From IMG/VR virus record IMGVR_UViG_2630968397_000004: a stretch of DNA of 17,408 nucleotides; one strand, written 5' to 3'. The stretch comes from a virus. Taxonomy: Duplodnaviria; Heunggongvirae; Uroviricota; Caudoviricetes. Of the stretch, positions 6,540 through 9,265 are shown piece after piece. Position 1 is the first letter of the stretch. Every line of letters starts with the position of its first letter. The position numbers and the translations under genes were made by a program. The notes beneath the pieces are model-generated. The model did no database searches. It saw only the letters and a program-made list of their open reading frames with translations, and was not told where the DNA came from.

Positions 6540-6869
6540 CTATGCCACGACCTGTTCAAAATCTGCCGTTATGGTTACCCACAACGCCCCCACGCTTGCC
6601 GACCATTTACGACAAACCACCCTGATCGGCTTCCAGTCATAAGGTGGCGTCCACTGAAATGCGCGGACGCCACCGTGCCGTTCCAGAAAGGCTTTTAAAA
6701 ATGGGTGTTCACCTTTACGAACACGTATCTTCACGCTGTAAGTCGACAACTGGTTATTCAGTCCCGCCGCACGACGCTGTTCATAACCATCGCCCAGCTT
6801 CACTGTCACCACTTTCGGCTCTGATACCACATTCATATCCGGGCGCACTTTCCAGTGAAACGTCTCCAT
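6540..6869 (-). CDS. M: lambda M-like tail tip protein (109 aa)
   Basis: ORF track protein METFHWKVRPDMNVVSEPKVVTVKLGDGYEQRRAAGLNNQ... recognised as lambda gpM. Start overlaps the stop of the H fragment. Confidence 0.9.
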   Translation of the reverse strand: METFHWKVRPDMNVVSEPKVVTVKLGDGYEQRRAAGLNNQLSTYSVKIRVRKGEHPFLKAFLERHGGVRAFQWTPPYDWKPIRVVCRKWSASVGALWVTITADFEQVVA

Positions 6870-7208
6870 TACCGGTATGCTCCACTTAACCGGCCACCAT
6901 CACGGGCCTGCTGTTGCATAAAGTCCGCGGCCGCTTTTTTCCCGAGGTCATAAACCACCTTCAGGGCAGCCGGACCTATCTGCCCGTTCGTGCCATCGTT
7001 ATTGATCTCAATGTTGTACTGCGGGGCAAACATCACCATGCCTGAACCACCAGTATCCGCCACACCCCCCAGCTTACCATCAGCACCGCGACGCAGTGGC
7101 AGAATGGCTTCAGGTCCCGCTTCCCCCATCACACCCGCGCCTTTTGCAAAAGCAAAAAACGTCGGACGGTTAACCACCGTGCCACTGTAGCGACTCAAAT
7201 CAGCAGAC
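6869..7208 (-). pseudogene. H: 3' fragment of lambda H-like tape measure gene, truncated by IS600 insertion
   Basis: Reading frame is open from the IS600 left end (7209) down to the stop at 6869 and encodes ...ADLSRYSGTVVNRPTFFAFAKGAGVMGEAGPEAILPLRRGADGKLGG..., a tape-measure C-terminus-like sequence. The track's leading MSVKLRLP residues are encoded by IS600 terminal sequence. Confidence 0.8.
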
Positions 7209-7690
7209 TGAGGTAGCCTGAGTTTAACGGACACTCCTTCCTGAAATAGAATGGCATCAGAAGGAGCTAATAATGAGCAGAAAAACCCAACGTTACTCTA
7301 AAGAGTTCAAAGCCGAAGCTGTCAGAACGGTTCCTGAAAATCAACTTTCGATCAGTGAAGGCGCTTCCCGATTATCTCTTCCTGAAGGCACTTTAGGACA
7401 ATGGGTTACCGCCGCCAGAAAAGGGCTCGGTACTCCTGGTTCCCGCACGGTGGCTGAACTGGAATCTGAAATTCTGCAACTGCGTAAGGCGTTAAATGAA
7501 GCTCGCCTTGAGCGAGATATATTAAAAAAAGCAACAGCGTATTTTGCACAGGAGTCGCTGAAAAATACGCGTTAATCGAACAATGGCGACAACAATTTCC
7601 CATTGAAGCGATGTGTCAGGTATTTGGTGTATCCAGGAGCGGTTATTACAACTGGGTACAGCATGAACCCTCAGACAGAAAACAAAGTGA
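7209..7690 (+). mobile_element. IS600 (IS3 family), truncated copy 1: left 482 bp only
   Basis: Starts with the same TGAGGTAGCCTGAGTTTAACGG terminus and orfA offset (64 nt) as the full-length copy at 15654-16917. Sequence stops matching after ...AAAGTGA, where a second IS600 left end begins. Confidence 0.9.
7273..7575 (+). CDS. IS600 OrfA (100 aa, helix-turn-helix transposase N-terminal part)
   Basis: ORF track; identical to orfA of copy 3. A7 slippery run (TTAAAAAAAGC) near the 3' end where the -1 frame is open. Confidence 0.9.
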   Translation: MSRKTQRYSKEFKAEAVRTVPENQLSISEGASRLSLPEGTLGQWVTAARKGLGTPGSRTVAELESEILQLRKALNEARLERDILKKATAYFAQESLKNTR

Positions 7691-7751
7691 GGTAGCCTGA
7701 GTTTAACGGACACTCCTTCCTGAAATAGAATGGCATCAGAAGGAGCTAATA

Positions 7752-8054
7752 ATGAGCAGAAAAACCCAACGTTACTCTAAAGAGTTCAAAGCCGAAGCTG
7801 TCAGAACGGTTCTTGAAAATCAACTTTCGATCAGTGAAGGCGCTTCCCGATTATCTCTTCCTGAAGGCACTTTAGGACAATGGGTTACCGCCGCCAGAAA
7901 AGGGCTCGGTACTCCTGGTTCCCGCACGGTGGCTGAACTGGAATCTGAAATTCTGCAACTGCGTAAGGCGTTAAATGAAGCTCGCCTTGAGCGAGATATA
8001 TTAAAAAAAGCAACAGCGTATTTTGCACAGGAGTCGCTGAAAAATACGCGTTAA
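7752..8054 (+). CDS. IS600 OrfA (100 aa)
   Basis: ORF track; P21L variant of the other copies. Confidence 0.9.
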   Translation: MSRKTQRYSKEFKAEAVRTVLENQLSISEGASRLSLPEGTLGQWVTAARKGLGTPGSRTVAELESEILQLRKALNEARLERDILKKATAYFAQESLKNTR

Positions 8055-8089
8055 TCGAACAATGGCGACAACAATTTCCCATTGAAGCG

Positions 8090-8729
8090 ATGTGTCAGGT
8101 ATTTGGTGTATCCAGGAGCGGTTATTACAACTGGGTACAGCATGAACCCTCAGACAGAAAACAAAGTGATGAGCGGCTAAAACTGGAGATTAAGGTGGCA
8201 CATATCCGCACTCGCGAAACATATGGAACCCGGCGGCTCCAGACGGAGCTGGCAGAGAATGGCATCATCGTTGGTCGTGACCGACTGGCACGTCTTCGTA
8301 AGGAGCTAAGGCTACGCTGTAAGCAGAAACGCAAGTTCAGAGCGACTACGAACTCGAACCACAATCTGCCAGTTGCGCCAAATCTGCTGAACCAGACGTT
8401 CGCTCCTACAGCACCAAATCAGGTCTGGGTGGCGGACCTGACGTATGTTGCCACACAGGAGGGATGGTTGTACCTCGCAGGAGCAGTCTGGTCTGAAAAC
8501 ATCAATGTCGCGTAAAGGTAACTGTTACGACAACGCTCCGATGGAAAGCTTCTGGGGAACGCTGAAAAATGAGAGCCTGAGCCACTATCGTTTTAATAAC
8601 CGGGATGAAGCCATCTCAGTAATACGGGAATACATTGAGATTTTCTACAATCGTCAGCGTCGTCACTCTCGTCTGGGGAATATCTCCCCGGCAGCCTTCA
8701 GGGAAAAATATCATCAGATGGCTGCTTAA
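8090..8729 (+). pseudogene. IS600 orfB disrupted by the 179-bp deletion (frameshifted; split into 141-aa and 94-aa track ORFs)
   Basis: Track ORFs 8090..8515 and 8445..8729 together correspond to the 272-aa OrfB of copy 3 minus residues IKDVYTCE...DYRVIQ. Confidence 0.85.
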
Positions 8730-8822
8730 AAAAAGAACAAATGGTAGTGTCCGCTATTGCCAGTACACCTCACACTCTATCCAACAAACCACCCACAGTT
8801 AATCGGAATAAAAGCAGAGTGC

Positions 8823-8895
8823 TTATGAATGATCGCACGCCCGAAGGTTAGTATTTCTGCACAGCAATTTTGCAAAAAAAGGCGATCATTCATAA
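8823..8895. repeat. 14-bp perfect inverted repeat (TTATGAATGATCGC / GCGATCATTCATAA) with 45-bp spacer
   Basis: Seen directly: arms at 8823-8836 and 8882-8895, between IS600 copy 2 and tRNA-Gly. Confidence 0.6.
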
Positions 8896-8902
8896 CTTAA
8901 AC

Positions 8903-8948
8903 GTCTTTCAGTCACTCCGGGATTTCCCATCATCGCAGACTGAAAGAC
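8903..8948. repeat. 11-bp perfect inverted repeat (GTCTTTCAGTC / GACTGAAAGAC) with 24-nt spacer, just downstream of the tRNA cluster 3' end
   Basis: Seen directly: arms at 8903-8913 and 8938-8948. Possible processing or terminator hairpin for the tRNA transcript. Confidence 0.5.
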
Positions 8949-8954
8949 TCTGAC

Positions 8955-9029
8955 TGGAGCGGGCAGCGGGAATCGAACCCGCATCATCAGCTTGGAAGGC
9001 TGAGGTAATAGCCATTATACGATGCCCGC
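8955..9029 (-). tRNA. tRNA-Gly (anticodon UCC), 75 nt with encoded CCA
   Basis: Reverse complement GCGGGCATCGTATAATGGCTATTACCTCAGCCTTCCAAGCTGATGATGCGGGTTCGATTCCCGCTGCCCGCTCCA folds as cloverleaf with anticodon loop CTTCCAA; recognised as glyT-like. Confidence 0.85.
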
Positions 9030-9032
9030 ATA

Positions 9033-9108
9033 TGGTGCCGACTACCGGAATCGAACTGGTGACCTACTGATTACAAGTCAGTTGCTCTGCCTGCTGAGCT
9101 AAGTCGGC
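9033..9108 (-). tRNA. tRNA-Thr (anticodon UGU), 76 nt with encoded CCA
   Basis: Reverse complement GCCGACTTAGCTCAGCAGGCAGAGCAACTGACTTGTAATCAGTAGGTCACCAGTTCGATTCCGGTAGTCGGCACCA. Perfect acceptor, D and anticodon stems; anticodon loop CTTGTAA; one mismatch in T stem. Confidence 0.75.
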
Positions 9109-9110
9109 GC

Positions 9111-9187
9111 TGGCCCACCACCGAGGACTCGAACCTCGCACCGTCAACTTAGAAGGTTGATGCTCTATCCGGATGAGCTAGTGGTGG
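9111..9187 (-). tRNA. tRNA-Arg (anticodon UCU), 77 nt with encoded CCA
   Basis: Reverse complement CCACCACTAGCTCATCCGGATAGAGCATCAACCTTCTAAGTTGACGGTGCGAGGTTCGAGTCCTCGGTGGTGGGCCA. All four stems pair; anticodon loop CTTCTAA. Confidence 0.75.
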
Positions 9188-9188
9188 T

Positions 9189-9265
9189 TGGTGGCCCTTG
9201 CTGGACTTGAACCAGCGACCTGGCGATTATGAGTCGCTCGCTCTGACCAACTGAGCTAAAGGGCC
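9189..9265 (-). tRNA. tRNA with CAU anticodon, Ile2 (ileX/ileZ-like, lysidine) or Met, 77 nt with encoded CCA
   Basis: Reverse complement GGCCCTTTAGCTCAGTTGGTCAGAGCGAGCGACTCATAATCGCCAGGTCGCTGGTTCAAGTCCAGCAAGGGCCACCA. Close resemblance to E. coli tRNA-Ile2 (GCGACTCATAATCGC core and identical T arm). Separated from tRNA-Arg by 1 nt. Confidence 0.75.

Follow-up and report, generated by a model that had tools for sequence, protein, structure and literature searches.

The cryptic lambdoid prophages of Escherichia coli K-12, Rac (at ttcA), DLP12 and Qin, are non-inducible remnants that hold scattered intact genes. Deletions caused by insertion sequences (IS) of the IS3 family either start exactly at an IS end or arise when a new insertion recombines with an existing copy, and reported cases include the IS150-associated rbs deletions of long-term E. 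coli evolution and, in O157, those of IS629 with the IS-excision enhancer. IS600 is, with IS1, IS2, IS4 and IS911, one of the five IS expanded in all Shigella, where IS are said to aid deletions between homologous copies (Hawkey et al. 2020, PMC7373316). The catalogue for Shigella sonnei lists about 23 prophage regions, which are conserved from one complete genome to the next (PMC5447701), and the Shiga toxin (Stx) genes of S. dysenteriae type 1 lie in a defective lambdoid prophage that is itself conserved and has an IS600 next to stx (PMC7819885). Here we describe IMG/VR record IMGVR_UViG_2630968397_000004, a stretch of 17,408 nucleotides (nt) referred to below as the window, which holds a defective lambdoid prophage of S. 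sonnei at the ttcA (Rac-type) site. We put the probability at roughly 0.87 that the region between its transfer RNA (tRNA) cluster and its tail-tip genes is the scar of an IS600-associated deletion. With ~15–17 kb (roughly 20 genes) gone, virion or lysis function from this element is ruled out.

The finding is one more instance of the IS-driven decay already known in Shigella and is in that respect ordinary, as the IS, the genus and the loss of genes with an IS at the joint are all the same (PMC7373316). Prophages are not mentioned in that account, and the joint found here, an IS600 fragment abutting an IS600 copy, is known from sequence only; a literature search on this specific joint returned general accounts only. 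The Stx prophage of S. dysenteriae type 1 resembles the remnant in its clonal conservation, in an IS600 that immediately follows the Q region and in the existence of strain variants with a truncated IS600 (PMC7819885). Unlike that prophage, the window has no stx, its tRNAs are Ile2-Arg-Thr-Gly, tail-tip genes stand in place of the toxin operon and the chromosomal site is a different one. The S. sonnei remnant adjoins ttcA, as does Rac, and has a truncated tyrosine integrase, and its relatives carry the Rac-type neighbours RecE, YdaE, YdaT and YdaU. It differs from the K-12 cryptic prophages in the modules that survive and in having its deletion joints marked by IS600.

The phage genes lie on the minus strand (Table 1), in the order Q-like gene, terminator hairpin, four tRNAs, 182-bp spacer, IS600 (8772–7209), a remnant of the tape-measure gene H (H'), M, L, K, I and J. 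Both ends of the lambdoid late order are present and collinear with phage PhiR47_1 and with a prophage of E. coli VL40, and the middle, from the holin through most of H, is absent, as no holin, endolysin, terminase, portal, capsid or tail-tube genes lie between 7209 and 8954. The remnant H' is identical at 109 of 112 residues to the C-terminus of the 1021-amino-acid PhiR47_1 H; the VL40 tape-measure gene is annotated as frameshifted, and the comparison of H' with VL40 was therefore made as DNA and not as protein. A sequence-only reading of the window had counted about 180 bp from the tRNAs to IS600 and roughly 113 codons of H beyond it, close to the measured 182 bp (8954–8773) and 112 codons plus stop (7208–6869). 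Its central proposal, the loss of the lysis, head and tail-tube module and most of H with IS600 exactly at the joint, is borne out by the collinear undeleted relatives PhiR47_1 and VL40, and its description of the prophage as defective is strengthened by a second IS600 joint from which the early region and most of int are missing. Three of its statements need correction, one of them on the size of the loss (below). IS600 does occupy 7209–8772, though as a fragment (nt 1–479) and one copy with a 179-bp internal loss rather than as two copies, and of the frames it considered intact, M, L, K, I and the Q-like gene are full length, whereas J has 1113 codons instead of 1159.

Self-BLAST and direct comparison identified three IS600 segments in the window, with a mutual identity of 99.6–100% and an identity of 99.2–99.7% to RefSeq loci annotated as 'IS3-like element IS600 family transposase'. 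Copy C, the intact reference, is 1264 bp long, with imperfect terminal inverted repeats (TGAGG...CCTCA), a 100-amino-acid orfA and a 272-amino-acid orfB that together contain HTH_Tnp_1 and rve domains. The IS600 sequence at the joint amounts to 1564 bp and consists of a 479-bp 5' fragment (A') abutting copy B, such that IS600 nt 479 is joined to nt 1 of copy B with an ambiguity of 3 nt (TGA). The internal gap of copy B (nt 792–970) has no useful microhomology and splits orfB into pieces of 141 and 74 amino acids, which makes the copy non-autonomous. The IS600 ends coincide exactly with both novel joints, homology to the relatives ending at 7208–7211 and restarting at 8773. The composite is flanked by GAC and CAC and thus has no 3-bp target duplication; the simple IS600 insertions in the compared loci (n = 3) have perfect 3-bp duplications (CAC/CAC, AAC/AAC and TGC/TGC). 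The missing duplication marks the composite as a rearrangement joint and not a simple insertion, and the identification as IS600 is unaffected. Two readings of these repeats were rejected. A simple tandem duplication within one IS600 could produce the 479-bp fragment, but the repeat begins exactly at IS nt 1, which would be a coincidence for an event independent of the IS end. A common flank of A' and copy C, raised by a self-BLAST match that ran 6 bp past the IS, was dropped because the flanks differ (GCAGAC and GCATAG).

The undeleted arrangement is preserved in PhiR47_1, a complete 43-kb phage in which the two flanks, with order and orientation unchanged, stand on either side of the full module. 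Window 8773–9282 aligns to 15685–15178 and window 1988–7211 to 35623–30393, and the interval between these blocks (15686–30392, 14.7 kb) contains the holin, lysozyme, Rz, terminase and portal genes, head and head-tail genes, Z, U, V, G, T and ~908 codons of H, which is annotated at 27670–30735. VL40 carries ipaH, and its prophage matches almost the whole of the window's phage DNA collinearly, at 93–99% identity; the 17.29 kb from its tRNA-Gly to the H breakpoint hold 22 genes and the N-terminus of H. Judged by these relatives, the loss would be about 15–17 kb (14.7 kb against PhiR47_1 and 17.3 kb against VL40), less than the more than 20 kb first proposed from the sequence; the alignment to complete lambdoid genomes suggested in the same place has thus shown both flanks collinear in two of them with the full module between. 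The point at which the deletion begins can be located through the 182-bp spacer, which matches the prophage locus of E. coli FDAARGOS_943 at 20001–20182 (96.6% over the containing 2122-bp match) and PhiR47_1 at 15685–15505 (94.9% over the containing 510-bp match). The holin starts at 19890 in the FDAARGOS_943 locus and at 15796 in PhiR47_1, and the deletion begins ~110 bp before the holin position of the relatives. As to the VL40 prophage itself (NZ_CM177011.1, 2296000–2342000), it is largely complete, has its tail-fibre genes followed by the effector gene ipaHd, terminates at a yecE remnant adjoining yecD and has a recE truncated by IS600 at the opposite end.

Five further complete chromosomes were obtained through an exact-protein look-up of the Q-like gene and matched by the dbpA-ttcA flank; one of them, FDAARGOS_90, is named S. 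sonnei (PMC5447701). A check of other strains, also suggested by the sequence-only reading, finds the scar in every one of the five, and the undeleted form in the relatives PhiR47_1 and VL40. Among these chromosomes, S. sonnei Ss046 and the window, the IS600 scar measures 1743, 1564, 1519 or 3079 bp. The 1743-bp form, in three of the five, comprises the 479-bp fragment and an intact 1264-bp IS600, and the 1564-bp form of the window and Ss046 lacks 179 bp within copy B. One strain has a 1519-bp scar in which the fragment is cut to nt 1–255 and again ends exactly at copy B nt 1, and another has a 3079-bp scar with a 1331-bp element in copy B, flanked by a 5-bp TGTAC duplication and taken as IS2-like from its size and ends. 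These forms show the ancestral S. sonnei scar to be the 479-bp fragment with an intact IS600 (1743 bp), and the 179-bp loss to be a later change common to the window and Ss046. This variation, made up of an internal IS deletion, an adjacent deletion and an IS2 insertion, fits the ongoing IS activity of S. sonnei (PMC7373316). The locus offers a clean and datable case of stepwise IS600-driven decay, with an ancestral scar across S. sonnei and lineage-specific changes on top, and the scar variants could serve as structural markers of S. sonnei lineages.

The starting state of the deletion would have been two IS600 copies in the same orientation, one in H and one in the spacer between the tRNAs and the holin. 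Transposase would then have joined the left end of the spacer copy to nt 479 of the H copy, and the intervening DNA would have been excised, as an intramolecular, adjacent deletion. In a variant that accounts for the joint almost equally well, a nested IS600 would first have inserted within the H copy, and homologous recombination with a third copy, in the spacer, would have come next; this route needs more steps. We infer these steps from the end states, which alone were observed. The break falls exactly at the first base of an IS end, which points to transposase strand transfer and not to homologous exchange, and the second deletion adjacent to the left end, in the strain retaining nt 1–255, favours an attack by the left end of the spacer IS600 on the IS600 resident in H. 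It is possible, though a weaker claim, that the two nested deletions, which both stop exactly at this IS600 left end (the fragment being cut at nt 479 in most strains and at nt 255 in one), would represent natural evidence for one-ended adjacent deletion by IS600. Unlike the IS150 and IS629 deletions, the target of the IS600 end was here another IS600, and a 479-bp fragment was left behind. A similar IS600 scar in a lambdoid prophage was also seen in CP061367.1, where the IS connects a Nu1-like gene directly to the tail-fibre gene.

As IS600 occurs at three sites in the window at near identity (99.6–100%), it is the type of repeat that breaks short-read assemblies, and a repeat-induced misjoin that collapsed the intervening sequence has to be considered, an artefact already named by the sequence-only reading. 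Draft contigs do stop at the IS boundary, beginning 3 nt from the H'/IS600 joint. One contig, however, reads through this joint, and the index of the assembly collection has 432 blocks with a chimeric 121-amino-acid open reading frame spanning it. The finished chromosome of Ss046 (CP000038.1), which encodes a truncated IS600 orfB product unique to this locus, matches window 1146–17408 at 99.994% (1 mismatch in 16,263 bp, no gaps) and has no match to window 1–1145; the two sequences differ to the left of 1146 and are therefore independent assemblies, yet the joint is identical base for base. Both outer joints are present as exact 40-mers in 5/5 of the further locus-matched chromosomes despite their differing IS interiors. 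An assembly artefact is in effect refuted and is excluded for practical purposes. In searches of wider collections, neither joint was found in 5,426 complete E. coli genomes, and exact-pattern searches with the H'/IS600 and fragment/copy joints gave zero matches in species-representative genomes, a result that is uninformative on other Shigella, as S. sonnei most likely lacks a representative of its own in that set.

A real joint could also have formed by IS600-mediated recombination between two lambdoid prophages at separate sites, through inversion or translocation, in which case the module would survive elsewhere at the reciprocal IS600 joint. The material for such an exchange exists, since the numerous prophage regions of S. 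sonnei include one lambda-like region of 48.9 kb and two that are mEp460-like (PMC5447701), IS-associated inversions are on record for Shigella (PMC7819885), and the collinear VL40 prophage ends at yecD where the S. sonnei remnant lies at ttcA, so that at least one lineage has been rearranged. We nevertheless consider this unlikely: the flanks lie on one strand and in the order that one late operon would have, a simple homologous exchange would yield one hybrid IS and not a second copy with a 479-bp fragment joined to its nt 1, and one further strain has a second, smaller deletion up to this IS end, proof that local deletions do arise there. That nothing was deleted at all, the Q-tRNA and tail-tip blocks of this lineage never having had a structural module between them (as in a satellite-like or naturally mosaic element that merely received an IS600), draws on the variable structural partners of the Q-tRNA module among genomes and is hardly credible, given that H is reduced to its last 112 codons, startless and fused to an IS end, the spacer ends 110 bp short of the relatives' holin start, no target duplication is present and complete relatives with both flanks exist. 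Several points count against an IS600-associated deletion as reconstructed here, or limit its precision. The 182-bp spacer aligns to PhiR47_1 and FDAARGOS_943 only and not to VL40. The Q-tRNA module is mosaic, so that what exactly the ancestor contained and how much was lost are estimates from relatives at 93–97% identity. The S. sonnei genomes were covered at the locus ±10 kb only, so that absence of the module elsewhere is not part of the evidence, and the two sub-mechanisms are inseparable with the present data.

Table 1. Features of the prophage remnant and its IS600 segments (coordinates of the window)
Feature	Coordinates	Strand	Basis
Tail-tip gene J, 3'-shortened, 1113 codons	1143..4484	-	Pfam J domains on identical Ss046 gene
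Tail assembly gene I, 200 amino acids, intact	4545..5147	-	PF06805 Lambda_tail_I; 180/180 identical to VL40 protein over the length of the latter
Tail-tip gene K, 247 amino acids, intact	5084..5827	-	PF14464 and PF00877; 234/247 identical to VL40
Minor tail gene L, 232 amino acids, intact	5832..6530	-	PF05100; 219/232 identical to VL40
Minor tail gene M, 109 amino acids, intact	6540..6869	-	PF05939; 106/109 identical to PhiR47_1 M
H', last 112 codons and stop of the tape-measure gene, without native start	6869..7208	-	Matches 3' end of PhiR47_1 H and VL40 tape-measure gene
IS600 fragment A', nt 1–479 only (left inverted repeat, orfA, start of orfB)	7209..7687	+	479/479 identical to copy at 15654
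IS600 copy B, both ends kept, 179 bp lost internally (nt 792–970), orfB broken	7688..8772	+	Self-BLAST, direct comparison
First 182 bp of tRNA-holin spacer	8773..8954	-	Alignment to FDAARGOS_943 and PhiR47_1
tRNA cluster Met/Ile2(cat), Arg(tct), Thr(tgt), Gly(tcc)	8955..9265	-	ARAGORN
tR'-like intrinsic terminator hairpin between Q-like gene and tRNAs	9353..9383	-	RNA fold
Q-like late antiterminator (DUF1133), 184 amino acids, intact	9455..10009	-	PF06576, weak PF06530 Phage_antitermQ; full length against VL40
YbcO (96 amino acids) and DUF1367 (199 amino acids) genes, upstream of Q, intact	10006..10895	-	PF07102, PF07105; 94/96 and 191/199 identical to VL40
IS600 copy C, intact, 1264 bp, reference copy	15654..16917	+	Self-BLAST, direct comparison

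The tRNA cluster consists of Gly-tcc, Thr-tgt, Arg-tct and a tRNA with a CAT anticodon that RefSeq labels Ile in relatives, and the same four-tRNA cluster is annotated in VL40, FDAARGOS_943 and PhiR47_1. In other genomes the Q-tRNA module is joined to several unrelated structural modules. The Q-like protein matches DUF1133 with a weak Phage_antitermQ match only, and a role in antitermination is putative. A hairpin lies 72 nt downstream of its gene (−20 kcal/mol, z = −3.65), with a GC stem followed by a U run, and resembles lambda tR'. A consensus terminator scan of 8700–10100 had found no terminator, a result that was set aside once folding revealed this hairpin with its U run. A promoter-like site at 9304–9275, just upstream of the tRNAs, was noted as a consensus match only. 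Elsewhere, in a lambdoid prophage of E. coli OkiPb01696, a similar scar is seen: an IS600 with a TGC duplication lies ~200 bp downstream of phage tRNA-Ile and tRNA-Arg genes, the position of stx in Stx phages.

The reading frames of M, L, K, I, the Q-like gene, YbcO and DUF1367 are full length with zero internal stops and the expected Pfam domains, and the M, L, K, I and J proteins bear lambda-type domain signatures (Table 1; for J the GpJ domain set). After the deletion, the Q-like gene, the terminator, the four tRNAs and H'-M-L-K-I-J follow each other on one strand and may represent a potential single transcription unit. Between the window and Ss046 there is a single substitution in 16 kb, so that little time for decay has passed, and the intactness of the frames stems from a recent origin and does not speak for selection. 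It is quite improbable that the surviving pieces were kept because they are useful rather than because the decay is recent. Horizontally acquired genes are AT-rich in Shigella, and if usefulness did play a part, tRNAs reading AUA, AGA, ACA and GGA could aid the translation of such genes, and the tail-tip proteins could serve some host function. For annotation, the element should be treated as a non-functional prophage remnant in which H and, in this strain, J are pseudogenes and the IS600 is damaged, and it should not score as an 'intact' prophage, as may occur with automated tools.

A second IS600 deletion joint lies at the early end of the prophage. Copy C has the flanks TAG and TTG, without a target duplication, and joins sequence of the DUF977 region to the last ~160 codons of the tyrosine integrase beside ttcA (16918–17408). 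Its left flank matches the FDAARGOS_943 locus at 25836, and in FDAARGOS_943 ~11–12 kb separate the two flank points, a stretch that includes most of int and the genes for replication, repressor and recombination. The window also contains two IS1 copies, at 11231–11998 and 14747–15514. The latter is a simple insertion with a 10-bp direct repeat (AACTCATCTT), and the former has no duplication, lacks alongside it 132 bp that VL40 has, and so marks a small deletion adjacent to IS1. A 51-amino-acid toxin gene of the Hok/Gef family (Pfam, on the identical Ss046 gene) is located at about 12091–12246 on the minus strand, between the first IS1 and a DUF551 gene.

At the opposite end of the window, J is 46 codons shorter than in Ss046 and VL40 and is cut by an unrelated serine-recombinase element, with the junction at 1146–1159 and Ss046 homology starting at 1146. 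Window 1–1079 (minus strand) is the 5' part of a gene for a 507-amino-acid large serine recombinase, and a megablast of the phage collection with window 1–1145 returned no match. The same recombinase is found in E. coli CUPS04 at the end of an 11.5-kb element inserted in yecE, with a cargo of Dam methylase, HNH, a 709-amino-acid tape-measure-like protein, a Dit-like protein and several unknown proteins. The yecE and J sites are identical at 15/24 positions around AA(A/T)A(T/A)CACCCG. By this comparison, J looks like a secondary attachment site of the recombinase element. The identical joint between the shortened J (1113 amino acids) and the recombinase is present in at least 17 contigs, and the element behind it varies among isolates, with 78–96% DNA identity, tape-measure-like proteins of 682–710 amino acids and different small open reading frames. 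This divergence is far above that of the host clone and suggests repeated acquisition or replacement at the J site.

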